The notes under the pieces are model-generated. The model saw only the letters and a program-made list of their open reading frames with translations. It searched no databases and had not been told where the DNA came from. A stretch of DNA of 64,000 nucleotides from Thermoanaerobaculia bacterium. GTDB taxonomy: Bacteria > Acidobacteriota > Thermoanaerobaculia > UBA5066. The position numbers were made by a program, and so were the translations under genes. Location of the stretch: NCBI GenBank assembly GCA_963816185.1, contig CAWFJJ010000025.1, positions 544,001 through 608,000 of the forward strand, written 5' to 3'. Shown here in pieces: positions 1 through 54,823 of this stretch (the first letter of the stretch is position 1; every line of letters begins with the position of its first letter).

Positions 1-1648
1 TCTCGGTCGAGTTGGAGAAGAGCCAGAGGGGGAAGCCCGGCTCGTCGGGCGGGACGGGCGGCATCTCGTGGACGAGCTTCATCTTGCCGGACGCGGTGGG
101 AAACTTGCGATCTTCGAAGAGGACCTTTTCGACGAGAGGGTTGCGGACGGATTCGCGCTCGAGTCTTGCTGCGGTCAGGCCGAGCGGCGCGACTCGTGCG
201 AGCAGCCGCTCTTTCCAATCCCGGGCCGTCCCTCTTACCTTCTCAGAAATCTTCTCTTCTCTTTCTCCGGTTCTTTCGTCGATGGCCTTCGCGAGCGCCT
301 GGACGATCTCGAGATCCGACAAAACGCCCTGGGGCGGCGCGAGCGCGGGAGTCGAGGCCCCGAGCCAGTGGTTACCGTAGGCGCCGAGGAGGTCGTCGTC
401 TTCCACGAGCGTCGTCGTGGGGAGGACGAAGTGCGCGCGGCGGCCCGTGTCCGTCAGGAACGGATCCACGACGACGACCAGCTCTCGCGTCTCGAGAGCG
501 CGTGCCACCGTTCCCGACTCCGGCAGCATCGCGACGGGGTTCCCTGCGGTGACCCAGACCGCGCGGACGGGCGGGTCCTTCGCCTCGAGAATGCCCGGGC
601 CGAGAAGCGGCTCGGAGATCGTGCGGGGCGGATTCTTCTTCAGAAACGACGTGTCGAACGCGCCGCGCCTCTTGAAGTAGAACGACACGCCGCCGCCGGA
701 GATACCGATGTTCCCGCTGACTCCCGAGAGCGCGTCGAGCGCCCGCACGATGCCCGAGCCGTTCATCCGCCGGCCCATCCCCCAACCCACCTGGATCGAG
801 CAGGGTTTCCCCGCGAGCGCCGAGGCGACGGCCGAGACGTCCTCGATGCTCACGTCGGCGGCACGCGCCCAGGCGCCGGGGGAGCGCGACGAGGCCAGCG
901 CCCGGAACTTCTCGAAGCCGTCGCAATAAGAGGGCGCGTCCAGGTCCACCTGCCCGCGCTCGAAGAGGAGCGCGGCGGCCCCCATCGCGAGATCGAAGTC
1001 GCCGCCGGGGCGGACGAGGATCGTCCGGTCGGCGATCTTCGCGCCCTTGTGTCGAACGGGGTCGATGAGGAGGATCCGCGTCCCCGCCTTCTTCGCCTTC
1101 TGGAGGAGAGGCAGGATGTGGATGTTCGAGACGTTCGGGTTCTTGCCCCAGAGGAGGATGTTCTTCGAGCTCAGGATGTCGAAGAGATCGTGCGACTCCT
1201 CTTCGCCGAAGTCGGTCGTCTGCGCCGCGTCGCCGCCGCCTGAGCAGATGTCTCCTCGCTTGACCGTGACCGGCCCGAACAGCTCCCAGAAATAATCCAC
1301 CACGGACTTGAGGAGTCCGAGCGATCCGCCCGACCGGTAGTGGAGGATCGCGGCCGGTCCGGATTCCTTCCGGATCGCGAGCAAGAGGTCGGCGATCGTG
1401 CCGAGCGCTTCGTCCCACGTCACCTCGGCGAAATCCTTCCCGCGGCGCATGAGCGGCTTCGTGAGACGCTCCTTCGAGTTCTGCATCTCGGGAAAATTCG
1501 ACGTGCGAGTGCAGATGAAGCCCTGCGTGACCGGATGGTCCGGATCGCCTCCGAGGGAGACGAGCCTTCCGTCCTCGACGGTTGCGATCAGGCCGCACGC
1601 GTCGGGGCAGTCCCGGTTGCAGACAGTCCGGAGAGTCTCGATCGCCAT
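1..1648 (-). CDS. Molybdopterin-dependent oxidoreductase (bis-MGD family), 3' end outside window
   Basis: Manual translation from ATG 1648 (SD GGAG): MAIETLRTVCNRDCPDACG...DPDHPVTQGFIC (4Fe-4S motif), LWGKNP, VTAGNP, VVVDPFLTDTGRRAHFVLP. Open to the window edge, so absent from the ORF track. Confidence 0.9.
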   Translation of the reverse strand, partial: MAIETLRTVCNRDCPDACGLIATVEDGRLVSLGGDPDHPVTQGFICTRTSNFPEMQNSKERLTKPLMRRGKDFAEVTWDEALGTIADLLLAIRKESGPAAILHYRSGGSLGLLKSVVDYFWELFGPVTVKRGDICSGGGDAAQTTDFGEEESHDLFDILSSKNILLWGKNPNVSNIHILPLLQKAKKAGTRILLIDPVRHKGAKIADRTILVRPGGDFDLAMGAAALLFERGQVDLDAPSYCDGFEKFRALASSRSPGAWARAADVSIEDVSAVASALAGKPCSIQVGWGMGRRMNGSGIVRALDALSGVSGNIGISGGGVSFYFKRRGAFDTSFLKKNPPRTISEPLLGPGILEAKDPPVRAVWVTAGNPVAMLPESGTVARALETRELVVVVDPFLTDTGRRAHFVLPTTTLVEDDDLLGAYGNHWLGASTPALAPPQGVLSDLEIVQALAKAIDERTGEREEKISEKVRGTARDWKERLLARVAPLGLTAARLERESVRNPLVEKVLFEDRKFPTASGKMKLVHEMPPVPPDEPGFPLWLFSNSTE

Positions 1649-1651
1649 CTC

Positions 1652-2329
1652 CTACCCCAAGTGCGTGCGGAAGTGGGCGACGGTCCTCTGCCAGGCGTCC
1701 TTCGCGCACTCCTCCCGGTAGATGCCGGGGCGCGTGTCGTTGAAGAAGGCGTGCGGTGCGCCGCGGAAGATGATCGTCTCCACTTTCTTTCCGAGCGCCT
1801 TGAGCTTGTCCTCGAGCGGCTTCGCATCCGACGCGGGGACGCTCTCGTCCATCTCGCCGTAGATCAGGAGGATCGGGCCGGAGAGGTTCTCCCAGCGGAT
1901 TTGCACTTTTTTGAAGCCGCCGTAGAAGCTGACGGCGGCGCCCACGCTCGGGTTCGAGGTGGCGGCGTATTGCGCGAGCGCGCCGCCCACGCAGAAGCCC
2001 ACGACGCCGAAGGCCTTCGACGCGCACTCCGGCCGGTTCAGGAGATACGCGCCCGCCGCCGCGATCTCGCGGCCCGCGCGCTCGACGTCCATCTCCATCA
2101 GGAGACGCCCGGCCTCGTCCGGCGAGGTCGTCGTTTTGCCGTGATAGAGATCGGGTGCGAACGCGACGAAGCCTTCTTTCGCGAAACGGTCCGTGACATC
2201 CTGGATGTGCGGCACCAGGCCCCACCACTCCTGGATCACGACGACGGCCTGCCCCTTGCCCGACGCGGGCTTCGCGAACCACCCCTCGCCCTTCTGGCCG
2301 TTGACGGTGAAGGAGACCTTCTCGCCCAT
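1652..2329 (-). CDS. Dienelactone hydrolase family protein
   Basis: QEWWGL, APDLY, GFCVGG nucleophile, GAPHAFFND motifs. Confidence 0.92.
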   Translation of the reverse strand: MGEKVSFTVNGQKGEGWFAKPASGKGQAVVVIQEWWGLVPHIQDVTDRFAKEGFVAFAPDLYHGKTTTSPDEAGRLLMEMDVERAGREIAAAGAYLLNRPECASKAFGVVGFCVGGALAQYAATSNPSVGAAVSFYGGFKKVQIRWENLSGPILLIYGEMDESVPASDAKPLEDKLKALGKKVETIIFRGAPHAFFNDTRPGIYREECAKDAWQRTVAHFRTHLG

Positions 2330-2399
2330 GTGTGCGCCCTCCTGATCGACTTGCCCGCCTCATTCTCTCCCAGGTTCCCGCGCCCTATACTCGCCCTTC

Positions 2400-6046: not shown

Positions 6047-7309
6047 CTAGCCGACGAGCCTCAGCGGGCGGTACGCACGTTTAACGCCATTCTCTTCGTT
6101 CTGCAGGTACTCGCGGACGTGCGCGATGAGGTCCGCGTCGATCGTGCCCTGATCGAGGCAGACGAAGAGTTCACCGAGAGCCGGCGACGGGGAGAAGCGA
6201 GAGTCGCGTCGATCGCGACGAATGCCATCGACCTCGGCGGCCATGGCGTTCAAATTGCCGAGATGGCCGAGGCACTCGGCGACATGCAGTCGTGCGAACA
6301 GGACTTCCATCGGCGATCCTGTGATTTCAGCCTCGCGCGCGATTTCTGCGAAAGCGCGCAGCGCCTGCTGGTAGCGCTCGCGACGAAAATCGAGTTCGGC
6401 GAGACCGTTTCGTACGAAGAAAACCGTCGACGTGAAGCCATGCTTTCGAGCGAGATTCAACGCACGTGCGAAACCCGCGCGCGCCTCTTCGAATCTCTCG
6501 AGCCGGGCGAGAGCGTTTGCCCGATTGTTGAGAGTCATGGCCAGCGGCTGTGCATCACACTCGGGATCGAACGCCTTAATCGCACGATCGAGCCGGGAGA
6601 GAGCTCTCAGGTCGTCACCGCGCTGCAGGAAGAGAGTCCCGAGAGCTGCCTCCGCACGGGCCACGAGATGATCCTGCCCGAACTCCGCAAAGGACGAAAG
6701 TGCGCTCTTGAGCTTCTTCTCCGCCGAGCCGTAGTCCTTTGCGAACCCGGCCGCCTGACCTTCATAGTAGTCGCACAGAGCCTGGCCGAACCCGAGGTCT
6801 CCCGACTGCCGGAAGAACTCTCGGGCCGGCTCGATCGCCGCTCGTGCGGAATCGGCCTCGCCGACCTGCAAAAAGGCGTGAGACCTGAGGATCATCGCTT
6901 CGGCTTGGACCGCCTGTCTTGGCGCCGGCGTCGTGAGTCGGGAGTCGCGATTCACATCGAGAAGAGAGGATGCTTCCGCGAGAAGCTCATCTGCGAAATG
7001 AAGTGCGACCCTTGGATTCTCGGAAACGAGCGGCCCCGCCTTCTGTGCCGCGTACAGCAGAGCAAAGCCCCGGTAGGGCTTGCCGTCCAGCGAGCGGAGC
7101 GCGGCCGCGAGTTCGTCGGCGCCGGACCGGGCGGCATTCAGGATCAGCTCGGCGGGCTTCTCGGCGTCCTGTGAAAGCTGGTAAATCTCTTCCACGGAAA
7201 CGCGAGCGTTGGCTCTCACGAAGGGGAGCGTGCGGCCCATGGCCTCGCGCGGCAGCTCGGGCACGAGCTCGCTCTCGAGGATCGCGTCGAAGACGTCATC
7301 CTTCTTCAC
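6047..7309 (-). CDS. Tetratricopeptide-repeat protein (about 420 aa)
   Basis: TPR helices such as LAMTLNNRANALARLERFEEARAGFARAL; GTG 7309 overlaps the upstream TGA (GTGA); more A/T-rich than its flanks. Confidence 0.85.
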   Translation of the reverse strand: MKKDDVFDAILESELVPELPREAMGRTLPFVRANARVSVEEIYQLSQDAEKPAELILNAARSGADELAAALRSLDGKPYRGFALLYAAQKAGPLVSENPRVALHFADELLAEASSLLDVNRDSRLTTPAPRQAVQAEAMILRSHAFLQVGEADSARAAIEPAREFFRQSGDLGFGQALCDYYEGQAAGFAKDYGSAEKKLKSALSSFAEFGQDHLVARAEAALGTLFLQRGDDLRALSRLDRAIKAFDPECDAQPLAMTLNNRANALARLERFEEARAGFARALNLARKHGFTSTVFFVRNGLAELDFRRERYQQALRAFAEIAREAEITGSPMEVLFARLHVAECLGHLGNLNAMAAEVDGIRRDRRDSRFSPSPALGELFVCLDQGTIDADLIAHVREYLQNEENGVKRAYRPLRLVG

Positions 7310-16741: not shown

Positions 16742-17980
16742 TCACGAGCCCTCCCGCCGCGGCTCCCTGACGCGTGAGAAGAGCGCGGCGGAGAGGAGTC
16801 CGAGCGCGAGCATCGAGAGCCACAGCACGCGCCCGCCCCCGTGTTCGAGGAGCGCGGTTCCGAGCGGCGGCCCGACGACGATCGCGAAGCTGAACGCCAT
16901 CCCGTAGAGCCCCATGTAGACGCCGCGGCTCTCGGGCGGCGCGACGTCGGCTACCCACGACGCCATTCCGGGGAGCAGCATCATCTCGCCGAACGTCCAG
17001 ACGACGATCGTGAGGACGACGACGGGCATCGAGCGCGCGAACGCGAGCGCGCCGAAGCCAGAGGCGACGAGGACGGAGCCGAGCGCGAGCGCGCGCCGGT
17101 GCGACCAGTGCGCGGTCGCGAAGTTGAGCGGCACCTCGAGGAAGACGATCAGGACCGTGTTGACCGTGTGGAGGAGGCCGAACGTCCAGACCGGGAAGCC
17201 GAGGACCACGACGAGGAAGACGGGCAGGGACGACGCGTGTTGGAAGAAGACGATCCCCACCGGCACGAGCGCGACGAGGAAGTAGACGAGCGCCGGATCC
17301 CGCAGGCCCTCGCGCCGCGACGGGCCGACGCCGGCGGGTGCCGCCGCGGGGAACGCGATGTCCTTCGGGAAGAAGAGGGCGAGCGTCGCGGCCGCGAGGA
17401 GGGACGTCGCGCCGTCGACGTAGAACAGAGCGGGCCACGACACGGCCGCGAGGAAGCCGCCGAGCGCGGGCCCGATGCTCATCCCGAGATTCGAAGCGAG
17501 CCGCTGGAGCGCGAACGCCGCCCGCCGCTGTTCGGGCGCGGCGAGGTGCGTGATGACGCTCAGGCTCGCCGGCCGGAACGCCTCGTTCACGACGGCGATG
17601 ACGAGCGTGAGCACGGCGATCGACGGGAGGGTGCGCGCGAGCGGGACGAAGAGGAGGAAGAGGCCCGAGAGGAGGAGCGAGACGAGCATCATCCGCACGG
17701 GGCCGAAGCGGTCCGCGAACCGGCCGACGACCGGTCCCGCCACGAGCGCCCCGAGGCCGAAGAGCGCGAAGACGCCGCCCGCCATGGACGGGGTCACGCC
17801 CAGGTCCTTCGTGAGGTAGAGGATCAGGAACGGCAGGAACATCGTCCCCGACCGGTTCACGAGAGTGGCCCCCGCGAGCACCCAGAGCGCGCGGGGGAGA
17901 TCCGAGAGTCCCCGCCAGGGGTTCAGCGCGAGTCTCCGGAGAGCGGCATCACGCGCGGAGCATACGTGCGCCTGCATCAT
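16742..17980 (-). CDS. MFS transporter
   Basis: Multiple hydrophobic helices, GRFADRFG motif A; exact start uncertain. Confidence 0.9.
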   Translation of the reverse strand: MMQAHVCSARDAALRRLALNPWRGLSDLPRALWVLAGATLVNRSGTMFLPFLILYLTKDLGVTPSMAGGVFALFGLGALVAGPVVGRFADRFGPVRMMLVSLLLSGLFLLFVPLARTLPSIAVLTLVIAVVNEAFRPASLSVITHLAAPEQRRAAFALQRLASNLGMSIGPALGGFLAAVSWPALFYVDGATSLLAAATLALFFPKDIAFPAAAPAGVGPSRREGLRDPALVYFLVALVPVGIVFFQHASSLPVFLVVVLGFPVWTFGLLHTVNTVLIVFLEVPLNFATAHWSHRRALALGSVLVASGFGALAFARSMPVVVLTIVVWTFGEMMLLPGMASWVADVAPPESRGVYMGLYGMAFSFAIVVGPPLGTALLEHGGGRVLWLSMLALGLLSAALFSRVREPRREGS

Positions 17981-18016
17981 TCCTGCCGGTCCGGCAGATT
18001 CCGAAGATAATCTCTT

Positions 18017-20629
18017 ATGCATGTCGCGTTGACGCTCAACGGCGTCGAGAAGACCTTTGACGTCGCCGCCGACGCGTCGCTCCTCGAGCTGCTCCGCGAC
18101 GGCGCGGGGATCACGTCGCCGAAGGATGGCTGCTCGCCCCAGGGCCAGTGCGGGGCGTGCCTCGTGCTCGTGGACGGGCATCCGAAAACTTCGTGCGCGA
18201 TTCCCGCCCGGAACGCCGCGGGGAAGAGCGTCCTGACGCTCGAGGGAGTGGCCGAGAGCGAGCGGCGAATTTACGGTGAGGCGTTCGCACGGACGGCGGG
18301 CCTCCAGTGCGGCTTCTGCATTCCGGGCATCGCGCTCCGGATGAAGAGCGTCCTCGACGCGAACCCGGATCCGACGGACGAAGAGATCAAGCGGAAGCTC
18401 GATCCGCACCTTTGCCGGTGCACCGGGTACGTCAAGATCGTCGACGCGTTCCATGCCGCGGCGCGGCTGCGCCGCGGCGAAGCGCTCCCGCCGCCGGACG
18501 AATCGGGCCGCGTCGGAACCAGCCTCGACCGCTACGAGGCCGAGGAGCTGACTCTCGGGACGCGGCCGTACGTCGCCGACCTCGTTTTTCCCGGGATGCT
18601 CCACGGCGCCGTGGCGCTCTCGGCGCACGCGCGGGCGCGCGTAAAAAGGATCGACACATCGAGGGCGGCCGGCCACCCCGGCGTGATGGCGGTCGTCACC
18701 GCGCGCGACGTGCCCGGCAAGCGTTTCTACGGCCTGATCGTCCCGGACTGGCCCGGCTTCGTGGCGGAGGGCGAGGAAACGCACTATGTCGGCGACGTCC
18801 TCGCGGCCGTCGCCGCGGTCGACGCGCGGACCGCCCGCGCCGCGGCGGCGAAGGTCGACGTGGAGTACGAAGTTCTCCCGCCCGTGACCGACCCCGAGGA
18901 GGCGCTCCGTCCCGGCGCTCCGCTCGTGGGAGGCGAGGGCAACCTCCTCGAGCGCTCGGTCGTCAAGCGCGGCGACGTCGAGGCGGCGCTCGCGGCGTCG
19001 GCGCACGTCGTCGAGGGCACGTGGCAGACGCAGCGCATCGAGCACCTCTACCTCGAGCCCGAGGCGTGCCTCGCCGCGCCGGGCGATATCGCCGGGCAGA
19101 ACCCTCGAGCGCGCCTGACCCTCTACACGCAGGGACAGGGAGTCTTCGACGACCGGCGGCAGGTGGCCGCGTTCCTCGGCCTCGCCGAGGACGAGGTGCA
19201 CGTCGTCCTCGTCCCGAACGGCGGCGCCTTCGGCGGCAAGGAGGACATGTCGATCCAGGCGCAGACGGCCCTCCTCGCCCGCGTGACGGGGCGGCCCGTT
19301 CGACTCGTCCTCTCGCGTGAGGAGTCCATGCGGCTCCACCCGAAGAGGCATCCCATCCGGATGCATTACCGCGCCGGGTGCGACTCCGAAGGCAGGCTGA
19401 CCGCGGTCCGGGCACGGATGATCGGCGACTCGGGCGCATACGCGTCGGTCGGGGGCAAGGTTCTCGAGCGTGCGGCCGGGCACGCGGCCGGACCGTACAA
19501 GTGCCCGAACATCGATGTCGAGGCGCTGGCCGTCTACACGAACAACCCGCCCTGCGGCGCCATGCGCGGCTTCGGCGCGAACCAGGCCCACTTCGCCATG
19601 GAAGGCGCCCTCGACATGCTGGCCGAGAAAGCCGGACTCGACGGCTGGGAGATCAGGTGGCGCAACGCGCTCGAGGCGGGCGACGAGTGGTCGTGCGGGC
19701 AGAAGCTCACGGCTTCGGTCGGCCTCAAGAAGACTCTCCTCGCCGTCAAGGACGTCTGGGAGAAGAACCGGGGGCGCGCGGGCATCGCCTGCGGCATCAA
19801 GAACTCCGGCATCGGGAACGGGCTGAAGGAATGGGGAAGGGCGCGGCTCGTGGTGGAGGGCGGCGGCAGCATCACGCTTTACAACGGCTACACCGAGATG
19901 GGCCAGGGCCTCCTCACTGTCCTGATCCAGTGCGCGTGCGAGGTGACGGGGCTCCCCGCGTCCGTCTTCCGCGCCCGGGTCGACACGCGCTTTCCGATGG
20001 AGGTGGGCCAGACGACAGGCTCGCGGGCGACGTATCTCGGCGGACGTGCCGTCGTCGACGCGGCGCGGAAGCTGAAAGCGGACCTCGATTCCGGCAGGAC
20101 GCTCGAGGATCTTTCGGGCACCGTCTACGTGGGCGAAGTCCTCGTGGATGACACGACGAAGCTCGGCCACGAACCGCCTCCCGGAGTCCCGATGAAGCTT
20201 CACTCGGCCTTCGGATTTGCCACGCAGGTCGTGATCCTCGACGAGAAAGGCCGCGTGTCGAAGGTCGTGGCAGCTCACGACGTGGGGCGCGCCATCAACC
20301 CGAAGCTCTGCGAGGGGCAGATCGAAGGCTCCGTCCACATGGGTCTCGGCTACGCGCTCACGGAGGAGATGGTCTGCAAGGACGGCATGCCGGTTTCGTT
20401 CCGCATCCGCGACTACGGCGTCCTCAGGGCTCAGGACATGCCCGAAGTCGAGGTGATCCTCGTGGAGGACCCGCAGCCCGACGGCCCGTTCGGCGCCAAG
20501 GGCGTGGGGGAGATCGGCCTCGTGCCGACGGCTCCCGCGGTGGCCGCCGCCCTGCACACTTTCGACGGCGTCCGCCGGTTCACGCTCCCGATGCGCGATT
20601 CTCCTGCTGCCCGGGCGTTGAAACGGTGA
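18017..20629 (+). CDS. xdh: Xanthine dehydrogenase-family molybdenum hydroxylase, fused 2Fe-2S + Mo subunit (selenium-dependent XDH-like)
   Basis: GCSPQGQCGAC, QCGFC, CRCTGY, GGAFGGK, AMRGFG, GAKGVGE. Confidence 0.9.
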   Translation: MHVALTLNGVEKTFDVAADASLLELLRDGAGITSPKDGCSPQGQCGACLVLVDGHPKTSCAIPARNAAGKSVLTLEGVAESERRIYGEAFARTAGLQCGFCIPGIALRMKSVLDANPDPTDEEIKRKLDPHLCRCTGYVKIVDAFHAAARLRRGEALPPPDESGRVGTSLDRYEAEELTLGTRPYVADLVFPGMLHGAVALSAHARARVKRIDTSRAAGHPGVMAVVTARDVPGKRFYGLIVPDWPGFVAEGEETHYVGDVLAAVAAVDARTARAAAAKVDVEYEVLPPVTDPEEALRPGAPLVGGEGNLLERSVVKRGDVEAALAASAHVVEGTWQTQRIEHLYLEPEACLAAPGDIAGQNPRARLTLYTQGQGVFDDRRQVAAFLGLAEDEVHVVLVPNGGAFGGKEDMSIQAQTALLARVTGRPVRLVLSREESMRLHPKRHPIRMHYRAGCDSEGRLTAVRARMIGDSGAYASVGGKVLERAAGHAAGPYKCPNIDVEALAVYTNNPPCGAMRGFGANQAHFAMEGALDMLAEKAGLDGWEIRWRNALEAGDEWSCGQKLTASVGLKKTLLAVKDVWEKNRGRAGIACGIKNSGIGNGLKEWGRARLVVEGGGSITLYNGYTEMGQGLLTVLIQCACEVTGLPASVFRARVDTRFPMEVGQTTGSRATYLGGRAVVDAARKLKADLDSGRTLEDLSGTVYVGEVLVDDTTKLGHEPPPGVPMKLHSAFGFATQVVILDEKGRVSKVVAAHDVGRAINPKLCEGQIEGSVHMGLGYALTEEMVCKDGMPVSFRIRDYGVLRAQDMPEVEVILVEDPQPDGPFGAKGVGEIGLVPTAPAVAAALHTFDGVRRFTLPMRDSPAARALKR

Positions 20630-20633
20630 AGGC

Positions 20634-26472: not shown

Positions 26473-26473
26473 C

Positions 26474-30229: not shown

Positions 30230-31300
30230 GTGCGAGAAAAGAGCAGGTTGGGGTTGCTGTGGCGCCGGGTTCGCGCTCCGCGGTCGAACGGTGACGAGGA
30301 GGAGCGCATCGGCAAACAGAACGCGGAGCTTCTCGGGGCCCTCCAGAAGTGTCCGGACTCCATCATCGCGACCGACGCGAAAGGTCTGGTGACCATGTTC
30401 AACGCCGGGGCCGAGGAGCTGTTCGGCTACCGACCCTCGGAGGTCGTCGGCTTCTCGGCGGCGCGCTTCTATCCGACCCGCGAGGTCGCCAAGGGGATCA
30501 TGATGGCGTTGCGGGAGGCCCCCGGCGGTCGCCTGCGAAACATCGAGGTCACGGTCCGCCGGAAAGACGGCCTGGACATCCCCGCGTTGATCTCGCTGAC
30601 GCTCATCCGAAATGACCGCGGGGAGCAGGCCGGCACGGTCGGCTTCGTCAAGGATCTGATCTCCCAGAAGCAGGCGGAGCGGAAGCAGCAACAGGAGCTG
30701 GAGTACCTCGAGCGGAAGCTGAGCGAGATCATGGAGGTCTCCGAGGCCATGGCGCTCGGAGATTTCACACGCGAGGTCCGGGTCGAGCGCGACGACGTCA
30801 TCGGGAAGCTGGCCGCTTCCTTCAACCAGACGGCGCGGTCCCTCGGAGAGCTCGTGGCCCAGATCCAACGCACGGCCGAACGCATCGTCCGGGCCACCTC
30901 GCTGCAGGCGGAGGGCGCGGGCGGGGAGGAGCGGGTGATGGCGGCGGCCGTCGCCTCGATGAACGGCATCTCCCGGGCGTCGACGCAGATCACCGAGATC
31001 ACGGCGGTCATTGATCGGATCGCGCACCAGACGAATCTGTTGGCCCTCAACGCGGCCATCGAGGCGGCCCGGGCGGGGGAGCAAGGCCGCGGGTTTGCCG
31101 TGGTGGCGCTCGAGGTGCGAAAGCTTGCCGAACGCTCGGCCGAGGCGGCTAAGGAGATCAGGGAGCTCATCCAGGACTCGGTGCAGAAGGTCCACGACGG
31201 CTGCGAACACGTGGATCTGGCCAGCCGGCTGGTGGGCGAGCAGGCCGACGAGCTGGGACGGATCGTGGGGCGCTTCCAGGTGGCGGGAAAGGGAGGTTAG
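30230..31300 (+). CDS. Cytoplasmic PAS-HAMP methyl-accepting chemotaxis-like protein
   Basis: PAS (DSIIATD...[11 protein letters not shown]), HAMP ([13 protein letters not shown]), [27 protein letters not shown] hairpin tip. Confidence 0.88.
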
Positions 31301-33848: not shown

Positions 33849-33851
33849 GGC

Positions 33852-34541
33852 CTAGGCGGCGGCCGCTTCCGGCCCGAGGATCAGGCCGTCGCGCAGCTCG
33901 ACCTTGCGCTCGGCCATCGCGGCGATGTGGGGATCGTGCGTGACGAGCATGACCGCGTTGCCCTGGCGGTGCAGCTCCTTGAACAGCTCGAGAACCTCGG
34001 CCCCGGTCTTCGAATCGAGCGCGCCGGTAGGCTCGTCCGCGAGGAGGAGGGCAGGCCTGTTCGCGAGGGCCCGGGCGATGGCGACCCGCTGGCGCTGGCC
34101 GCCCGAGAGCTGCGCGGGGAGAACGTCGGCCTTCTCGGGAATTCCGACCTTCTCGAGCATCTCCATCGCGCGGCTGCGGCGCTCCTTGCGCGAGAGACCG
34201 GCATAGAGCAGCGGCAGCTCGACGTTGCGGAGGATCGAGGCCTTCGGCAGGAGGTTGTAGCTCTGGAAGACGAAGCCGACCTTCTCGTTGCGGATTCGCG
34301 CGAGCGCGCCGCCCGACAGGCCCTCGACGGACTGGCCGTCGAGCGCGTAGCGGCCCGCGGTGGGGGAGTCGAGGCAGCCCAGGATGGCCATGAGCGTCGA
34401 CTTCCCGGAGCCCGACGGCCCGATGAGGGCCACGAACTCGCCCTTCTCGACCACCATGTCGATCCCGCGCAGGGCGTGAACGGCGTTCCCGTTCGCACCG
34501 AAGACCTTCGTCAAGCCGGCTGTCTCAATGATCGTTGACAT
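33852..34541 (-). CDS. ABC transporter ATP-binding protein (LolD/MacB-like)
   Basis: GPSGSGKS, LSGGQRQR, LLADEPTGALD, VTHD. Confidence 0.95.
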   Translation of the reverse strand: MSTIIETAGLTKVFGANGNAVHALRGIDMVVEKGEFVALIGPSGSGKSTLMAILGCLDSPTAGRYALDGQSVEGLSGGALARIRNEKVGFVFQSYNLLPKASILRNVELPLLYAGLSRKERRSRAMEMLEKVGIPEKADVLPAQLSGGQRQRVAIARALANRPALLLADEPTGALDSKTGAEVLELFKELHRQGNAVMLVTHDPHIAAMAERKVELRDGLILGPEAAAA

Positions 34542-34561
34542 CGTGTTTTTGGTTGGCTGGT

Positions 34562-34666
34562 CTTTCTTAGAAAGTGAATGCGGCCTTCCGTACGCGTCGA
34601 GCTTGCCGTGTCAGGCCGCCGCGACCCGCCGCCTATTCATGTTCTAAGAAATCCCCTCTTCTCTCC
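34562..34666. repeat. Inverted pair of the TTCTTAGAA motif, intergenic
   Basis: TTCTTAGAA 34564-34572 and TTCTAAGAA 34642-34650. Confidence 0.8.
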
Positions 34667-34671
34667 GGTTC

Positions 34672-35892
34672 CTAGTTGTCGTCGTCTTTCTCTACTTTTT
34701 TCTTCGTCGGATCCTCGAGGCAGACCTGATCGTTCGCCTTGAGGCCCGTCAGGATCTCCGCCCGCTCGAGCGTCGCGACGCCCGCCTGCACCGGAACGAC
34801 ATCGAAGTAATCCTTCCAGTGGTCCGAGAGCCAGATGAACTTGGCGCGGCCGGCGAGCCCCTCGCGGGCGTCCGCGAGCTGCTTCGGCTTGAGGTTGTCC
34901 TTGAGGCGGTACACGACCGTCTTTCCCTCGCGACGCTGGAGCGCCTCGAGCGGAACGGATACGGCCTTCTCGCGCTTCTCCCCGAGGATCTCGACGTTCG
35001 CGCTCATGCCCGTGCGGTAGGCGTCGCCGAGCTCGTCGAGCGAGACCTCGACCGGGAAGACCTTGATCTTGTCCTGCAGCTTCGCCGCGGGCGCGACGAA
35101 CCGCACCTTGCCCGTGAAGTTCTTCTGCGGGTACGCGTCGAGCGTGATGCGCACGATCTGGCCGACCCTGACCTTCGCGATGTCGACCTCGTTGAGATTC
35201 ACGCGGATGAGGAGCGTCTTGAGGTCCGCCACCGTGAAGAGGACCGTCCCCGCGTTGAACGAGGAGACGCCGGACGTCACCGTCTCGCCGAGCTCGACGC
35301 CCTTCGTGATCACGACGCCCGACATCGGGCTCGTCACGCGCGCGCGCTGCGTGACCGCGTCGCCGCCGATCGGGATGCCGTGCCCCTCGACGATCTCGTA
35401 GCGCTGGCGCGCGGCCTTGAGGTTCTCGGCCGCGAGATCGCGCTTCGTGACGTAGTCCTTCAGCGTCTCGCCCCCGATGAGGCCGTCCTTGAAGAGCCGC
35501 TCTTGCGACCGGAGCTGCCGCTCGGCGTCCTTCAGGCCGACGTCGGCCTGCGTGACTCCGGCCCTCACGTCGGAGAGCGACTGCGCCTGCGTCACGTCGG
35601 GCTCGACCTCGGCGAGGAGGTCGCCGGATTTCACGATGGCGCCGTCGCGGACCTTCAGGGCCACGACCCGCCCCGAGACGGCGGACTTGACGTCGACCTT
35701 CGTCTCGGGGTCGACGACGCCGACCTCGCGCACACTCACCTGGAGATCTTCGGTCTGCACCTTCCCGACCCGGAACGGCGACTGGTCGGCTCCCTTGGCC
35801 TTGTCCTTGCCGCGCGAGGCGAAGACGGCCCCTCCGCCCGCGAGCAGGATCACGCCAGCGGACGCCAGGATCCATTTGAGTTTCTTGGACAT
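34672..35892 (-). CDS. Efflux periplasmic adaptor subunit (MacA/HlyD family)
   Basis: MSKKLKWIL membrane anchor, VKSAVSGRV, SPMSGVV, RTGMSANVEI. Confidence 0.92.
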   Translation of the reverse strand: MSKKLKWILASAGVILLAGGGAVFASRGKDKAKGADQSPFRVGKVQTEDLQVSVREVGVVDPETKVDVKSAVSGRVVALKVRDGAIVKSGDLLAEVEPDVTQAQSLSDVRAGVTQADVGLKDAERQLRSQERLFKDGLIGGETLKDYVTKRDLAAENLKAARQRYEIVEGHGIPIGGDAVTQRARVTSPMSGVVITKGVELGETVTSGVSSFNAGTVLFTVADLKTLLIRVNLNEVDIAKVRVGQIVRITLDAYPQKNFTGKVRFVAPAAKLQDKIKVFPVEVSLDELGDAYRTGMSANVEILGEKREKAVSVPLEALQRREGKTVVYRLKDNLKPKQLADAREGLAGRAKFIWLSDHWKDYFDVVPVQAGVATLERAEILTGLKANDQVCLEDPTKKKVEKDDDN

Positions 35893-36810: not shown

Positions 36811-36816
36811 GGGAAG

Positions 36817-36843
36817 GACGAGGAGGATTTCTTAGAAGGGAAT
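36817..36843 (+). repeat. TTCTTAGAA motif between proB and proA
   Basis: GAGGAGGATTTCTTAGAAGGGAA. Confidence 0.75.
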
Positions 36844-38148
36844 ATGGGACCGGTTGAGATCGCGGAGCGCGCTCGAGTCGCCGCGAGGCGCCTCGCGTCA
36901 CTGTCTTCCGAGACCAAGGATCTCGTCCTTCGAAGAGTCGCCGACGGGATCGATGCGGCGCGAGACGCGATCCTCGAGGCGAACCGCGTGGACGTGCTCG
37001 AGGCCCGCACCACTTTCGAGGAAATCGCTCTCTCGCGTTCTCTCCTCGACCGCCTCGTCCTCGACGACACGAAGCTGGACGCGATGGCCGCGGGCGTCCG
37101 CGCCGTCGCCGCGCTCGCCGATCCTGTCGGGCGCGTGCTCTCGCGCACGCTGCTCGACGACGGCCTCGTTCTCGAGAAGGTGACGTGTCCTCTGGGCGTC
37201 CTCCTCGTCATCTTCGAGTCGCGTCCCGACGCGGTCGTGCAGATCGGCTCTTTGGCTTTCAAGTCGGGCAACGCGGCGATCCTCAAGGGCGGGCGGGAGT
37301 CCGCCCGGTCCACGGAGGCGCTGCTGGACGTGTTCACGAAGGTTCTCGCGGACTTCCCCGACATCCCCGAAGGCGCGCTCTCCTCCGTGGCCGGCCGGGC
37401 TGAAGTGGACGCGCTCCTCGCGCTCGACGAGTCCATCGACCTCGTGATCCCGCGGGGCGGCTACGAGCTCGTCAAGCACGTCCAGGCGCACACGCGCATC
37501 CCGGTCCTCGGCCACACGGAGGGCGTCTGCCACGTCTACGTGGATCGCGCTGCGGACGAGAGGATGGCGACGGCGATCGTCCTCGACAGCAAGCTCCAGT
37601 ACGCGGCGGCGTGCAACGCGATCGAGACGCTTCTCGTCCACCGAGAGGCCGCCAGTCGCTTTCTCGTTCCGCTGCTCGGTCGGCTCCTCGAGGCCGGCGT
37701 GGAGATCCGTGCCTGTGAGGAAACGCGAGCTCTCGCGCCGCCGCTCGTCCTCGCACCGGCCTCGGAGGAGGACTGGCGCATGGAGTACGGCGGCCCCGTA
37801 CTCGCGGTGAGGATCGTGAATTCCCTGGACGAGGCGGTCGATCACGTCAACCGTTACGGCTCGCACCACACCGAGGCCATCGTCACCTCCGACAAGACAG
37901 CCGCCGAGGCTTTCCTTTCCCGCGTGGACGCGGCGGGCGTCTTCCACAACGCCTCCACGCGCTTCGCCGACGGCTTTCGCTACGGCTTCGGGGCGGAGGT
38001 CGGAATCTCGACGAGCCGTATCCACGCCCGCGGTCCGGTCGGCCTCGACGGGCTCGTGACGTACAAATACGTCCTCAGGGGCAACGGCCAGATCGTGTCG
38101 ACGTACAGCGGGAAAGACGCCCGCCCGTTCCGGCATCAGCGGCTCTGA
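36844..38148 (+). CDS. proA: Glutamate-5-semialdehyde dehydrogenase
   Basis: IFESRP, ILKGG, ACNAIETLL, NASTRFADG, HARGPVGL. Confidence 0.96.
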   Translation: MGPVEIAERARVAARRLASLSSETKDLVLRRVADGIDAARDAILEANRVDVLEARTTFEEIALSRSLLDRLVLDDTKLDAMAAGVRAVAALADPVGRVLSRTLLDDGLVLEKVTCPLGVLLVIFESRPDAVVQIGSLAFKSGNAAILKGGRESARSTEALLDVFTKVLADFPDIPEGALSSVAGRAEVDALLALDESIDLVIPRGGYELVKHVQAHTRIPVLGHTEGVCHVYVDRAADERMATAIVLDSKLQYAAACNAIETLLVHREAASRFLVPLLGRLLEAGVEIRACEETRALAPPLVLAPASEEDWRMEYGGPVLAVRIVNSLDEAVDHVNRYGSHHTEAIVTSDKTAAEAFLSRVDAAGVFHNASTRFADGFRYGFGAEVGISTSRIHARGPVGLDGLVTYKYVLRGNGQIVSTYSGKDARPFRHQRL

Positions 38149-38174: not shown

Positions 38175-38561
38175 TTACCAGACGCGCTGGACCGCGTAGG
38201 CGTCGAAGATGGCATCGTTGGAGAGAAGGGGAAACCCCTCGACGAGCGCCTGTGCGGCGAGCATCCGGTCGAACGGGTCACGGTGCCGGAGCGGTAGGCT
38301 GCCGGCTCGCTGAGCGTGGCGGACCGTGATGTCGAGCGGCTGAAATCCCTGACTCCCGAGACACGCCGAGACGTCCGCGGCAACGTCGAGAGCTCCCGGG
38401 AGCTTTCCTGCCGCCGCTTTGATGGTGATCTCCCACGCAGAGGCGGCGCTCACGAAGACTTCCGTCTTCTCATCGGCGACCAGCCGGCGTCCCCGCGAGG
38501 AGAGGCGGCGGTCGCCGTCGAGCCACCAGAGGAACGCGTGCGTGTCGAGGAGAAGGCGCAT
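38175..38561 (-). CDS. vapC: PIN-domain toxin VapC
   Basis: LLLDTHAFLW, SAASAWEI, HRDPFDRML. Confidence 0.93.
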   Translation of the reverse strand: MRLLLDTHAFLWWLDGDRRLSSRGRRLVADEKTEVFVSAASAWEITIKAAAGKLPGALDVAADVSACLGSQGFQPLDITVRHAQRAGSLPLRHRDPFDRMLAAQALVEGFPLLSNDAIFDAYAVQRVW

Positions 38562-38564
38562 CGC

Positions 38565-38798
38565 TCAGAGGCCCCAAGCCTTCAGGTCGGTCTTGGAAAG
38601 CGGCTTGAAGAACGCGGCCGACACGCGGGCGCGGCCGCGATAAGCGCCGAAACGGCGCGCCGGTTTGCCCACCCTGACCGGCACCAGCCGGACGGCCGGG
38701 ACCCTTCCTCGGGCGATGACGACCTCTTCGCCGGCCTCGGCCTTCTCGATGAGGCGCGAAAGATGCGTCTTGGCGGTGTGAACCGTGACGGTCTTCAT
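38565..38798 (-). CDS. Phd/YefM family antitoxin
   Basis: AKTHLSRLIEKAEAGEEVVIAR; directly upstream of vapC; TTAGCTAA palindrome at 38822-38829 is a possible operator. Confidence 0.9.
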   Translation of the reverse strand: MKTVTVHTAKTHLSRLIEKAEAGEEVVIARGRVPAVRLVPVRVGKPARRFGAYRGRARVSAAFFKPLSKTDLKAWGL

Positions 38799-38876
38799 GG
38801 AACCTCCATGGACCAATCATCTTAGCTAACACATCAGAGCGGAGCAATCCGTGCGTTCTCGTTCTAACATCCCGAC

Positions 38877-40736
38877 GTGGCTCCGATCCGGGTCCTTCCC
38901 GACGCCCTCGTCGATCAGATCGCCGCGGGCGAGGTCGTGGAGCGCCCGGCGTCCGCCGTCAAGGAGCTCGTGGAGAACGCGCTCGATGCCGGCGCGCGGC
39001 GGGTCCGCGTGGACGTCGAAGGCGGGGGGATCGCGCGGATCGAGGTCGTGGACGACGGCTCCGGCATGTCTCCCACCGACGCGAACCTGGCTCTCGAACG
39101 GCATGCGACCTCCAAGATCCGCACGTTTCAGGACCTGACCTCGATCGGCACAATGGGTTTCCGCGGCGAGGCGCTGCCCTCGATCGCCTCCGTCTCGCGC
39201 CTCGTCCTCGCGACGTCGCCGGACGAGTCCGGCCTCGGGACCGAGGTCGTGGCCGAGCGGGGCGCGCCTCCGCGCGTGTCACCCGCTCCACACCCGAAGG
39301 GCACGCGCGTCGTCGTCGAGGACCTCTTCGGTAACGTCCCGGCGCGCCGCAACTTCCTGAAGAGCGCCGAGGCCGAGCTCCGCGCGGTCGTGAAGGTCGT
39401 CACGACGCTGGCGCTTTCGCGGCCGGACGTCGCCTTTGCGCTCGGGGCGGGAAGCCGGCTTCTCCTGGATCTGCCTCCGGCACCTGGAATCGCGTCGCGG
39501 TTCCGAGAAGTCCTCGGGCTCGCGGCCCCGGCACCCCCACGCGACGTGGACTTCGCATTGAACGGCATGACGCTCACGGGCGCCGTGACGCGGCCCGACA
39601 CGACGTTTCCGTCGCGGGCGCACCAATGGTTCTTCGTGAACGGCCGCGCGATCCGGGACGCGACCGTGGCGCACGCCGTCGCGCTCGCGACGCGCGAGGT
39701 GCTGCGATCGGACCGCCACGCGGGGTTCGCGCTGTTTCTCGGCTGCGCGCCGGAGCTCTGCGACGTGAACGTACACCCGCAGAAGCTGGAGGTTCGCTTC
39801 CGCGAGCCGAGCGCCGTGCACACGCTCGTCCACCGCGGCCTCGTCCACGCGCTCACGGGGGGGAAGGGCGCCGTGGCGGTCCGTGGAGATGCATTCGAAG
39901 GTGAAAGAGGAAGACGAGGAAGAGAACGAGATTTCTTAGAAAGGGATATTGGTTGGCGGGGCGTGTCTGAGGTCGGCGAGGGGTTGGCTCGCTATGGCGG
40001 CGGGGACGCGGGAGCCGGAACGCTACTCGACGCGCGAGCGGCCGGCGCGTCCCCTTCCTCATATCCGCAGAAAATCTCCTCTTCTCTTTCCCCCTCTTCT
40101 CATTCGGAAGAAATCTCCTCTTCGTCTTCTTCGCTTTCCTCTTCCCCTCTCGGCCCCATTCGCCTCCTCGGCCAGTACCGCGATTCGTTCCTCGTGGGCG
40201 AAGGCGAGGAAGGGCTCGTGCTCATCGACCAGCACGTGGCGCACGAGCGCGTGAGGTACGAGAGATTTCTCGAGAGGCTCGAGGCGTCGGAGGTCTCGTC
40301 GCAGAATCTCCTGGCGCCGGTGACGTTCGAGGCGACGCCTGACGAGGCGGCGCTCCTTTCGCGGTCGGACGACTTCCTCGCCGAAGCGGGCTTCGTCGTT
40401 TCGGAGCTCTCGGGCCGGACGTTTCTGATTTCCGCCACACCGCCTGAAATGCCGGCCTCCTCGATCCTCCCCGCGCTTCGTGACACCCTCGCGCGCCTCG
40501 CGGCGTTGCCCGAGGGAGCCGCGTCCTCGCCCGCGCTCAGGCGCGAGGTCCTCGCCGCGTCGCTTGCCTGCCGTGGCGCGATCACGGTGAACCACCGCCT
40601 CGCGCCGGCGGAGGCCGTGCGGCTTCTCGCGGACCTCGCCGCCTGCCGTGACCCGTGGACGTGTCCGCACGGGCGCCCCATCCTCCTCGCGTTTCCGCAT
40701 GAAGAGCTCGAGAGACGCTTCGGGCGGCGCGGATGA
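38877..40736 (+). CDS. mutL: DNA mismatch repair endonuclease MutL
   Basis: IAAGEVVERP, GFRGEAL, DVNVHP, DQHVAHER, ACR, CPHGRP. Confidence 0.97.
   Translation: MAPIRVLPDALVDQIAAGEVVERPASAVKELVENALDAGARRVRVDVEGGGIARIEVVDDGSGMSPTDANLALERHATSKIRTFQDLTSIGTMGFRGEALPSIASVSRLVLATSPDESGLGTEVVAERGAPPRVSPAPHPKGTRVVVEDLFGNVPARRNFLKSAEAELRAVVKVVTTLALSRPDVAFALGAGSRLLLDLPPAPGIASRFREVLGLAAPAPPRDVDFALNGMTLTGAVTRPDTTFPSRAHQWFFVNGRAIRDATVAHAVALATREVLRSDRHAGFALFLGCAPELCDVNVHPQKLEVRFREPSAVHTLVHRGLVHALTGGKGAVAVRGDAFEGERGRRGRERDFLERDIGWRGVSEVGEGLARYGGGDAGAGTLLDARAAGASPSSYPQKISSSLSPSSHSEEISSSSSSLSSSPLGPIRLLGQYRDSFLVGEGEEGLVLIDQHVAHERVRYERFLERLEASEVSSQNLLAPVTFEATPDEAALLSRSDDFLAEAGFVVSELSGRTFLISATPPEMPASSILPALRDTLARLAALPEGAASSPALRREVLAASLACRGAITVNHRLAPAEAVRLLADLAACRDPWTCPHGRPILLAFPHEELERRFGRRG
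39920..40123. repeat. TTCTTAGAA motif plus two partial reverse copies in the mutL linker
   Basis: GAGATTTCTTAGAAAGGGA at about 39928-39946; AAATCTCCTCTTC at about 40072 and 40111. Confidence 0.7.
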
Positions 40737-52467: not shown

Positions 52468-52469
52468 GG

Positions 52470-53387: not shown

Positions 53388-53407
53388 GGCGCCTTCCTCC
53401 GCCGAGG

Positions 53408-53470
53408 AGACCCGCGCGAGTAGCCGTCTATTCCCGGATGCCGGGAATAAGATGACCCCGCCCGCGGTCT
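53408..53470. promoter_or_regulatory. Back-to-back identical ECF promoters
   Basis: GGGAATA-N16-GGTCT on + (53443-53470) and on - (53435-53408). Confidence 0.8.
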
Positions 53471-53476
53471 GTGGAA

Positions 53477-54019
53477 ATGGAGGGTTCCCTGCGCGAACCG
53501 GAACCGGGGGCGGAATTCGAGGAGCTGATGCTGCCGCTTCTCCCATCCGCCTATAACCTCGCGCGCTGGCTCACGCGCAACGACCACGATGCAGAGGACG
53601 TGGTTCAGGAGGCATTTCTGCGGGCTTATCGGTTCTTCCCTTCGTTCCGCGGCGGCGACGCGCGGGCCTGGCTCCTCGCGATCGTGCGCAACGCTTGCTG
53701 GACGTGGCTTCGCACGAATCGCGCGCGCGAGGACGCGACGGCCCTCGAGGACGCCGAAGAGCCGGCGGACATCGTCGCTTCCGTCGAGGAGGACCTCGTG
53801 CGGCGCGCCGATGGCGCACGGCTGAGGCGGGCGCTCGACGAGCTGCCTGGGGAATTCCGCGAAGTGATCGTGCTCCGCGAGCTCGAGGAGCTCTCGTACC
53901 GGGAGATCGCCGAGGTCGCGGGGGTCCCGGTGGGAACCGTGATGTCGCGCCTCGCGCGGGGGAGGCGGCGCCTCCAGTCGGCGCTCGCCCGGCCGGCCGC
54001 AGCCGAGGTGGCGCCATGA
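53477..54019 (+). CDS. ECF RNA polymerase sigma factor
   Basis: AYNLARWL, DAEDVVQEAFLRA, SYREIA...GTVMSRLARGR. Confidence 0.93.
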   Translation: MEGSLREPEPGAEFEELMLPLLPSAYNLARWLTRNDHDAEDVVQEAFLRAYRFFPSFRGGDARAWLLAIVRNACWTWLRTNRAREDATALEDAEEPADIVASVEEDLVRRADGARLRRALDELPGEFREVIVLRELEELSYREIAEVAGVPVGTVMSRLARGRRRLQSALARPAAAEVAP

Positions 54020-54756
54020 CCTGTCCGTTTCCCCGCGAGAACGCCCACGCCTGGCTCGACGGAGAGCTCTCGGTCGAGGCGACTCTGGAAGCCGAGCGCC
54101 ACGCCCGAGAGTGCGCCTCGTGCGCCGCGGAATACCGGCGTGCGCTCGCCCTGCGGTCGGCGCTCCGGGAGGGCGGGCTCGTCGCCGTTCCTCCGGCCTC
54201 CCTCGAGGCGCGCGTTCGTGCCCGCCTTGCGAAAGAGCGCAGGCCCTCGTGGCGGCGCGGCGTGCCGGAGTGGGCCGCACTCGCCGCAGCGCTCGTCCTC
54301 GGTGCCGCGCTCACGGCCCTCCTCATGCCGCTGCGCGAGTCGATCCGCGCCCGCGGCCTCGACGAGACCCTCGTCGACACCCATGTGCGCGCTCTCATGA
54401 AGGGGCCTCTCATCGAGGTCGTCTCGTCCGACCGTCACACGGTCAAGCCGTGGTTCGCCGGGCGCATCGACCTCTCGCCGAAAGTGAAAGACCTCGCGGA
54501 CCGGGGCTTCCCGCTCTCCGGCGGACGGGTGGACGACCTTTCGGGGCGCCGGGTTGCCGCCCTCGCGTATACGCACGGGCGGCACGAGATCGACCTCTTC
54601 GTCTGGGTCGCGGCGGCGCCCGCTCCGGCCGTGACCACGGCCGTTTTGCGCGGCTACCACGTCGCGCGCTGGACGGAAGGCGATCTCGCCTACGCCGCCG
54701 TGTCCGACATGGACGAGGAGGAGCTGCGCACGTTCGTCGAGCTCATCCGCAACTGA
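54016..54756 (+). CDS. Zinc-finger transmembrane anti-sigma factor
   Basis: HARECASC, TM helix, SSDRHTVKPWF; ATGA overlap with the sigma gene. Confidence 0.88.
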   Translation: MTCPFPRENAHAWLDGELSVEATLEAERHARECASCAAEYRRALALRSALREGGLVAVPPASLEARVRARLAKERRPSWRRGVPEWAALAAALVLGAALTALLMPLRESIRARGLDETLVDTHVRALMKGPLIEVVSSDRHTVKPWFAGRIDLSPKVKDLADRGFPLSGGRVDDLSGRRVAALAYTHGRHEIDLFVWVAAAPAPAVTTAVLRGYHVARWTEGDLAYAAVSDMDEEELRTFVELIRN

Positions 54757-54796
54757 CCTCGAAAGAGGAAGGATTCTTTTCAAAAGGGGAAGATGG

Positions 54797-54823
54797 GAAG
54801 AGAGAGATTCTTAGAAAGGGAAG
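54797..54823 (+). repeat. TTCTTAGAA motif, intergenic
   Basis: GAAGAGAGAGATTCTTAGAAAGGGAAG. Confidence 0.75.

Follow-up and report, generated by a model that had tools for sequence, protein, structure and literature searches.

Small palindromic repeats are the bacterial elements closest to the one described here. Repetitive extragenic palindromic sequences (REPs) are predominantly head-to-head dimers, with singlets present as well, and prefer gaps between co-directional open reading frames (ORFs); they are also found in genes, many of them replication or repair genes, where they lie in linkers or loops (excerpts of PMC3733652). REP doublets forming hairpins are known as REPINs (excerpts of PMC3337134). 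RPE repeats inserted in frame have also been described, as has the processing of transcribed Correia and ERIC elements by RNase III or RNase E (excerpts of PMC10969869). We analyzed a 64,000-nt stretch of DNA (the window) from a Thermoanaerobaculia bacterium (contig CAWFJJ010000025.1, positions 544,001 to 608,000), in which the motif TTCTTAGAA recurs within and between genes. To our knowledge, the Thermoanaerobaculia are uncultured and almost unstudied. [quoted passage not shown] Exact-string and keyword searches of the literature returned no report of this motif in bacteria, and by these searches the family is previously undescribed.

A recount confirmed the position and strand of all eight exact copies of TTCTTAGAA given in a preliminary description of the window: 29418 (+), 29574 (-), 29864 (+), 34564 (+), 34642 (-), 36829 (+), 39933 (+) and 54808 (+). 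The enrichment over background claimed there also held, with a mean of 0.03 copies (maximum 1) in 100 dinucleotide-preserving shuffles, none of which reached 8, and 0.088 copies expected on both strands together under an order-3 Markov model of the window. An order-5 model predicted 2.6 copies, having been trained on the same window so that the motif was already part of the model. The generic pattern TTC-N3-GAA was not enriched (50 observed, null mean 39). The full 14-mer GATTTCTTAGAAAG is exact only at 29861 and 39930, and the variant reported near 240 reads TTCTGAGAA on the minus strand. A position weight matrix (PWM) derived from nine copies (the eight exact ones and the 240 variant) gave 12 sites in the window, compared to 0–1 in each of 10 Markov-1 simulations; eight of the 12 are intragenic, in sua5, mutL or a molybdopterin-oxidoreductase gene. 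The 14-mer and PWM scans also recovered the variant at 240 and the partial copies noted near 40072 and 40111, with reverse-oriented half copies scoring 14.6 and 16.6 at 40064 (-) and 40104 (-). The described clustering was evident: of the eight exact copies, seven are confined to 10.5 kb (29.4–40 kb), three of them in one gene (sua5), and none is found from 0.3 to 29.4 kb. G+C content is 64–71% along the whole window. Two near-matches to the 14-mer, GATTTCTGCGAAAG (6341–6354, +) and GATTTCATTGAAAC (62453–62466, -), fall below the PWM cut-off and may be chance occurrences or decayed copies.

Each copy forms part of a strand-asymmetric unit of about 30–45 nt, here called an arm, consisting of a purine tract, GATTTCTTAGAAAG and often (R)GAATG with a G-rich stretch; after the purine tract, aligned copies show (G)ATTTCTTAGAAAG. 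The purine flank described earlier is present in eight of nine copies, in which the 35 nt upstream of the core contain at least 66% purine, the value at 34564 being 40%. An ATG lies 0–6 nt past the core in six of nine copies, with the G-rich stretch next. The core is a palindrome of 11–13 bp (TTTC-TTA-GAAA); its 11-nt form TTTCTTAGAAA can be read as 5+1+5 or as a 4-bp stem with a 3-nt loop. A TTA spacer is preferred, TTCTTAGAA occurring in 8 copies in the window versus 3 for TTCTTCGAA. The two strands of the canonical core contain TAG and TAA, respectively, and copies in genes are read as LRK, SKK, FLE or SEK according to their frame and orientation. The same sequence is thus found in intergenic DNA and, within genes, in several frames and both orientations, in agreement with the earlier proposal that the signal resides in the nucleic acid rather than in the protein. 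Neither a GTAG nor a CGTC tag was found at a fixed position in the aligned copies.

The arms form convergent inverted pairs, in which the purine tracts face outward, the cores are usually 78–85 bp apart and the G+C-rich interiors are unrelated. For six of seven window loci, an inverted partner with 1–4 mismatches in 13 positions was found on the 3' (AGAAAG) side, whereas the best partner on the 5' (purine-tract) side had 5–7 mismatches. At random window positions, the probability of finding a partner at 30–260 nt is 0.048 with up to 4 mismatches and 0.0014 with up to 2. Locus 240 had no convincing inverted partner. The spacings, including those in relatives L001 to L005 (see below), are 78 bp for the pair between an HlyD-family gene and an ABC transporter gene in the window, 80 bp for a pair between two FtsX genes in L001 and L005, 81 bp for a pair in the sua5 insert of L001, 83 bp for the sua5 pair 29418/29501 (80 bp in the L003 ortholog), 84–85 bp for the sua5 pair 29864/29948 (same offset in L001, L003, L004 and L005), 100 bp at 54.8 kb, 131 and 171 bp in mutL, 156 bp for the sua5 pair 29418/29574, 186 bp for the proA pair 36829/37015 and about 89 bp for a weak proA pair. 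Five of nine independent spacings fall at 78–85 bp, a span of 8 nt, and this was equalled in 129 of 200,000 uniform simulations (the test leaves out the 171 and 89 spacings). An inverted-repeat search gave terminal arms of 15–35 nt, 71–94% complementary and 55–187 nt apart.

A protein-guided scan with the window Sua5 identified 11 loci, five of which (L001 to L005) are close, with 74–81% identity. These five are contigs of metagenome-assembled genomes (MAGs) labelled Thermoanaerobaculia or Acidobacteriota and are syntenic with the window at 24.4–41 kb; together with the window they make up the approximately 118 kb of lineage DNA examined, all chosen around sua5. They contain 9 exact cores and 22 PWM sites in 53,785 nt, and the arms in sua5 recur at the same places. 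The presence of the core in these independently assembled relatives, which the preliminary description had regarded as a check on its reality, rules out an assembly artefact. No PWM sites were found in the unrelated loci L006, L010 and L011 (50–66% G+C), and the low-scoring A+T-rich matches in loci at 52–54% G+C were regarded as noise. Identity between the window and L003 is uneven, 92–97% at 31350–35000 (the ABC-transporter operon) and 75–88% in sua5, the M20 peptidase gene and proA, about as for the other relatives, a mosaic pattern suggestive of recent recombination across lineages. A gene for a PAS-HAMP-MCP chemoreceptor (30230–31300), located between sua5 and the FtsX genes, also differs by presence or absence of the whole gene, the corresponding spot measuring 4–7 nt in L003 and L005, about 440 nt in L004 and about 1.9 kb in L001 and L002.

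Differences among the relatives at gene junctions count among the evidence for a mobile or homogenised repeat. 1) In the operon encoding HlyD-family, ABC, FtsX and FtsX proteins (31349 to about 35900, minus strand; Pfam), a two-arm foldback of about 120 nt (34542–34671), with arms at 34561–34574 (+) and 34640–34653 (-), separates the HlyD-family membrane-fusion gene from the ABC ATPase gene and contains a 17-nt inverted repeat with 88% complementarity. The spacer holding both arms is 130 nt in the window versus only 0–11 nt in L002, L003, L004 and L005, i.e. in all four relatives covering it, and the flanks of the block are 93–95% identical to L003. Since the surrounding operon is 92–97% identical to L003, at least this one two-arm block is a recent gain. 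2) At the FtsX/FtsX junction, 165–240 extra nt with an arm pair are present in L001, L002 and L005, whereas stop and start codons overlap in the window, L003 and L004. 3) A single arm at 36811–36843 (+; core 36826–36839; PWM score 37.9) fills the spacer between proB (ending at 36810; Pfam) and proA (starting at 36844; Pfam), and the ATG behind this arm is the proA start codon. The single-arm spacer of about 33 nt is kept in L003, whereas L004 has an ATGA stop/start overlap and a spacer of 0. 4) Near the end of the window, an extracytoplasmic function (ECF) sigma/anti-sigma pair is followed by a peptidase-MA gene (approximately 53.5–55.7 kb; Pfam); a foldback at 54757–54943, with an arm at 54805–54818 (+; PWM score 32.6) and a degenerate partner at 54905–54919 (-), occupies the space between the anti-sigma-like gene (54016–54756) and the peptidase-MA gene (start at about 54944). 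Its 15-nt arms are 87% complementary, and the locus is outside the coverage of all relatives. Each of the four intergenic sites is flanked by co-directional genes, and at least three of these sites are within operons (HlyD/ABC, proB/proA and, in relatives, FtsX/FtsX). At the three operon junctions, relatives without the block have overlapping or nearly abutting stop and start codons, which the block pushes apart. These comparisons, together with those within genes given below, show that gain and loss of arms and arm pairs take place in discrete blocks, both at operon junctions and in those parts of genes that tolerate them, in the latter case with in-frame read-through.

The same junctions raise the question of whether the element acts as RNA. 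Paired arms could fold into a long hairpin, intercistronic or intragenic, whose stem would be AU-rich within a G+C-rich mRNA; through recognition by RNase III, RNase E or an RNA-binding protein, this hairpin could determine how stable, or how well translated, neighbouring cistrons are relative to each other. The predicted RNA folds pair the arms in three intergenic foldbacks, all of which fold better than shuffles (HlyD/ABC, z=-2.91, 0/200 shuffles as good; 54.8 kb, z=-2.94, 1/200; the third, z=-1.79, 6/200). The operon location and the separation of stop and start codons also fit this explanation, and precedents exist in that RNase III cuts the terminal inverted repeats (TIRs) of Correia elements and an ERIC TIR holds an RNase E site (excerpts of PMC10969869). 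However, two of the five elements folded, that of L002 (z=+1.20) and the mutL block (z=-0.53), do no better than shuffles, and covariation was unsupported at sua5 pair A, where the variable position would pair in 2 of 6 sequences as judged by eye. Rfam families gave no match at the gathering score in the whole window, or even at E≤1 in the 29–41 kb region. Such an element accounts for an effect and not for copies arising at new places. We consider it fairly improbable as the primary explanation; it is compatible with a small dispersed repeat as a downstream effect.

For the dispersed repeat itself, the following course can be proposed. Two convergent arms with an unrelated G+C-rich interior make up a foldback of about 100–130 nt. 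A sequence-specific protein encoded elsewhere, such as a transposase or an enzyme like the REP-associated tyrosine transposases (RAYTs), might recognise the core and spread or homogenise the arms; if short-range copying of arms is included, this would explain their clustering. Once transcribed, paired arms would form long hairpins between cistrons in place of translational coupling, and these hairpins could be targets of RNase III or RNase E, as reported for Correia and ERIC elements.

Arms also lie within genes other than sua5. The variant arm TTCTGAGAA (238–251, -; PWM score 34.2) lies in the molybdopterin-oxidoreductase gene (2–1651, minus strand; Pfam) and is read EEKISEKVRG; by our own reading of the codons, its T-to-G change would keep the ORF open, since the canonical T would give an in-frame TAG. 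In proA, internal arms span 36926–37026, a weak sense arm CCTTCGAAGAG (36927–36937) and an inverse arm CTTTCGAGGAAATC (37013–37026) being about 89 bp apart. The inverse arm also partners the arm at 36826–36839 (186 bp, 2/13 mismatches) and is part of a 30-nt in-frame segment that the window shares with L004 and that L003 lacks; at the position of the weak arm, L004 holds the better copy TTCTGAGAA. In mutL (38877–40736, +; Pfam), the linker between a domain ending near residue 326 and one starting at 431 contains a 37-nt purine tract and an exact arm (39896–39943, +; PWM score 36.2), read ...GERGRRGRERDFLERD, for which L005 has the degenerate, more G/C-rich ortholog GACTTCTTCGAAAGGGAC. Two reverse half-arms with pyrimidine tracts (40064–40161, -) are its partners, with 71% complementarity over 35 nt. 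In the 40064–40161 region the window is 47 nt longer than L005, by eye as if a half-arm had been duplicated. A gene pair for a PIN-domain toxin and a Phd/YefM antitoxin (38175–38816, minus strand) lies between proA and mutL.

The three exact copies in sua5 (29161–30171, minus strand; Pfam) are here called sites 1 to 3. Site 3 (29415–29428, +, antisense to the gene; PWM score 40.5) corresponds to LILFLRKSSL on the sense strand; its orthologous counterparts are exact in L003 and L004 and degenerate in L001 and L002. Its convergent partner, with cores 83 bp apart, is the weak linker arm TTTCTTCGAAGG (29499–29513, -, sense; read ALSSKVKR; PWM score 17.3), which has likewise weak orthologues in L001 and L003. 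Site 2 (29572–29585, -, sense; PWM score 27.6) is read PGDLLRKMIP; L004 and L005 have the G/C-rich codons CTG CGT and CTA CGC, in place of CTT AGA AAG in the others, with no change in length. Site 1 (29861–29874, +, antisense; TLILSKKSSV on the sense strand; PWM score 34.3) is exact in L001 and L002, and differs at one third-codon position (TCT/TCG/TCC/TCA) in L003, L004 and L005. A degenerate partner arm (29946–29960, -; CCTTTCTGAGCATCC on the plus strand; MLRKV in the sense direction) lies 84–85 bp from site 1, the two enclosing the conserved coding segment FWPGPLT, and a best inverted partner at offset 85 is also present in L001, L003, L004 and L005 with 3–5 mismatches in 13, the 5 mismatches of L005 being in the null range. 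The sua5 copies thus differ in frame and orientation; their differing frames, as well as the copy in the mutL linker, had been pointed out before and were borne out by Pfam matches and translations.

Length differences in Sua5 are found in its linker and loop. In the Thermoanaerobaculia proteins, the linker and the loop past site 3 are longer than in distant Sua5 proteins, and the linker of L001 and L002 has about 90 extra nt in frame (364 versus 336 aa), comprising a G+C-rich hairpin and an inverse arm whose flank resembles, by eye, that of an arm 300 nt off in the same gene. Among 120 Sua5 homologues (P0003–P0122; 65–100% identity, the top match being the window's own Sua5), 28 to 74 residues link the YrdC-like domain to Sua5_C, this linker being far more variable than the remaining protein. 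At the protein level, inspected by eye and uncounted, many of these homologues contain "SSKV" (the weak arm) and a few "SKK" (an inverse arm), the latter in varying contexts. Third codon positions in sua5 are mostly G/C. Among codons for conserved amino acids, 7 of 11 within arms end in A/T versus 19 of 133 elsewhere (Fisher p=6e-4), in a small sample with arm codons defined after the data were seen.

Several observations weigh against a mobile or homogenised repeat family. i) No target-site duplication is evident at the HlyD/ABC junction, and at FtsX/FtsX and proB/proA possible short direct repeats around the ATG were seen by eye, with no clear target-site duplication. ii) In an all-against-all comparison of 20 copies with 150-nt flanks, non-orthologous copies share only 14–22 nt, so that long MITE homology was rejected and the repeated unit is short, not a long element; the interiors are non-homologous between loci, although members of a classical MITE family are alike over their full length. 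iii) The interiors do not seem to be copied from the neighbouring 1.5 kb, as none of four comparisons gave a convincing alignment (scores of 27, 24, 30 and 31 versus shuffle maxima of 31, 30, 30 and 29). iv) Neither a Y1/RAYT protein nor another candidate transposase for the element is among the Pfam matches of the window, and the only insertion sequence (IS) there, of the IS481 family, was rejected as a source as its ends are unrelated to the motif. v) Two-thirds of the window copies lie in genes, unlike classical REPs, the lineage DNA covers a single neighbourhood, and the poor RNA folds noted above point the same way. vi) Compared with distant Sua5 proteins, the sequence at site 1 is unchanged in length, and the two sua5 pairs enclose FWPGPLT and SPGTRYVHYAP, segments conserved in all Sua5 proteins, which means that these arms were not delivered by one insertion. 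vii) A/T third positions invariant across at least 5 sequences make up 3 of 7 in the arms versus 0 of 19 elsewhere in sua5 (p=0.013); rather than decaying junk, such sites look like the result of constraint or ongoing homogenisation. Since conserved segments are flanked, A/T synonymous sites are kept and multi-substitution differences occur without indels, the evidence from sua5 suggests active writing or preservation of the arms, for which either a sequence-specific enzyme with short-patch copying or selection through binding or RNA could be responsible.

If selection through binding is responsible, the motif would be a bipartite protein-binding DNA site, with two palindromic cores about 80 bp apart and arms arising in place where tolerated, bound by a dimer of dimers or a DNA-wrapping nucleoid protein (compare gyrase or IHF at BIMEs, or a looping repressor). 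This agrees with the palindromic core, in which the central spacer is the only free position among the site-1 orthologues, with the narrow spacing of five of the nine pairs, with the undisturbed conserved coding segments between arms, with the A/T synonymous positions kept in them, and with site 2, which differs from the L004 and L005 codons by several substitutions and no indel. However, a range of 78–85 bp covers about three quarters of a helical turn and is therefore not phase-locked, the strong preference for TTA is odd for an uncontacted spacer, and it is hard to see what a symmetric operator would need a long one-sided purine tract for. Moreover, whole two-arm blocks with unrelated interiors come and go, for which a source of DNA is needed, and no binding protein is known. 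We hold this explanation to be unlikely. Alternatively, rather than passive ends of a transposon, the arms might constitute a "written" bipartite signal, i.e. two TTTCTTAGAAA cores 78–85 bp apart whose purine tracts face outward. A directed process would put this signal in place and keep it perfect, even on either side of universally conserved coding segments; this could be a domesticated nuclease or transposase with short-patch gene conversion, or a drive linked to uptake or recombination. We give this little credence; were it true, codon choice and protein linkers throughout a bacterial class would be reshaped by a driven motif of a new kind.

Two further functions had been put forward in the preliminary description. 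The DNA uptake sequences (DUS) of Neisseria and the uptake signal sequences (USS) of Pasteurellaceae occur at a very high and fairly even density, about 1 per kb. A comparable signal accumulated by biased uptake and recombination would account for a short exact core in both orientations and several frames, for its location in permissive protein segments, for inverted pairs and a copy in mutL, and for sua5 arms that seem to have arisen in place; the mosaic identity to relatives likewise suggests recombination between lineages. In contrast, copies here are sparse and unevenly spread (8 in 64 kb), and the long asymmetric flank, the fixed arm spacing, the strong clustering and the carriage of the motif on block insertions of 30–240 nt are not predicted by such a signal, which we consider very unlikely. 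Sites of the parS/matS type are expected to be stand-alone symmetric operators at stable positions. The clustering of seven copies and the positional conservation of some intragenic sites in relatives would fit a chromosome-organising site, yet copies also occur at 0.24 and 54.8 kb, the asymmetric unit is arranged in convergent pairs about 80 bp apart, and sites differ between close relatives by insertion of blocks. The canonical parS site, a 16-bp palindrome close to TGTTNCACGTGAAACA, had no window match with up to 3 mismatches, the motif core being an odd-spaced palindrome unlike it, and no parAB or origin-type genes were found among the Pfam matches in the window. This function is extremely improbable.

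Signals of gene expression were also considered for the motif and rejected. In the 29–41 kb region, no sigma-70-like sites were found and terminator-like sites occurred at the shuffle rate; an ECF-type promoter was set aside, as by eye the -35/-10 spacing looked inconsistent between copies. As for a general ribosome-binding signal, among about 50 upstream regions of genes a sense arm directly precedes the start only at proA, while one other region, upstream of the ABC ATPase gene at 34541, contains the foldback's inverse arm. The 3' tail of 16S rRNA, to which CTTAGAAAG would be complementary, was dismissed as a pairing partner, the spacing to the ATG appearing too short. Two foldbacks had no match in plasmid and phage collections, and a search of the window for tRNA and tmRNA found none. 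Toward the end of the window, the IS481-family transposase gene (62659–63915, +) lies within 62575–63975, with inverted ends carrying repeated CACATGGGT-like blocks, and G+C content falls to 64% over the last 4 kb. At 16742–20659, a crude gene caller based on third-position G+C chose a minus-strand ORF of 1305 aa with an MFS domain in its C-terminal part; it overlaps a plus-strand xanthine-dehydrogenase-like gene (18011–20629), and gene boundaries there are provisional.

If the arms are a small selfish or semi-domesticated repeat, such an element can uncouple translation at operon junctions, provide a gene with a new start codon (proA) and lengthen protein linkers (Sua5, MutL and ProA) in a G+C-rich genome. 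Recognition of the repeat would also be of use in annotation, as it accounts for odd A+T-rich patches of rare codons and for indel-rich linkers in these MAGs. Active maintenance of arms in conserved genes would point to a sequence-specific enzyme or binding protein.

Compared with the systems described above, the family shares features with several and coincides with none. Compared with DUS and USS, it has a short exact core in both orientations, permissive frames in genes and inverted pairs, whereas it is far sparser and clustered, with a long asymmetric flank, a spacing of about 80 bp and inserted blocks. RPEs are likewise palindromic repeats inserted in frame into unrelated coding genes and tolerated there; however, an RPE is about 150 bp long with a conserved peptide (excerpts of PMC10969869), whereas the motif is read in varied frames and orientations and some arms involve no length change. 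The bacterial MITEs Correia, ERIC and RUP resemble it in size (about 100–165 nt, within the 50–500 bp of a non-coding MITE unit), terminal inverted arms, location at gene junctions and presence or absence between relatives, i.e. insertion polymorphism, as well as in transcripts forming hairpins that RNases could cut (excerpts of PMC10969869). Unlike MITEs, copies of the motif lack homology along their length, the gain and loss can involve single arms of about 30 nt as units, target-site duplications are not demonstrated and no parent IS with such ends was found. REPs, BIMEs and REPINs differ from it in their GTAG or CGTC tag, while the motif has an A+T-rich core with a stem of 4–5 bp in a genome of 68% G+C, a long one-sided purine tract, unrelated interarm spacers, a mostly intragenic location (8/12 in the window) and no RAYT seen in the window. 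Its copy number, 12 sites in 64 kb of the window and 22 in 53.8 kb of the relatives, comes from DNA picked around sua5, where copies are clustered. On the other hand, like REPs it is a short palindromic unit, mostly in convergent dimers able to fold into a larger hairpin, favours gaps between co-directional genes, and occurs as singlets and dimers with some intragenic copies, particularly in repair genes; an arm of about 30–45 nt fits the REP unit of 20–40 bp, with the stem at the short end of the range (excerpts of PMC3733652). It is because of the gain and loss of blocks, the convergent arms, the size of about 100–130 nt, the co-directional junctions and the in-frame copies in linkers that we place this element among the small palindromic repeats.

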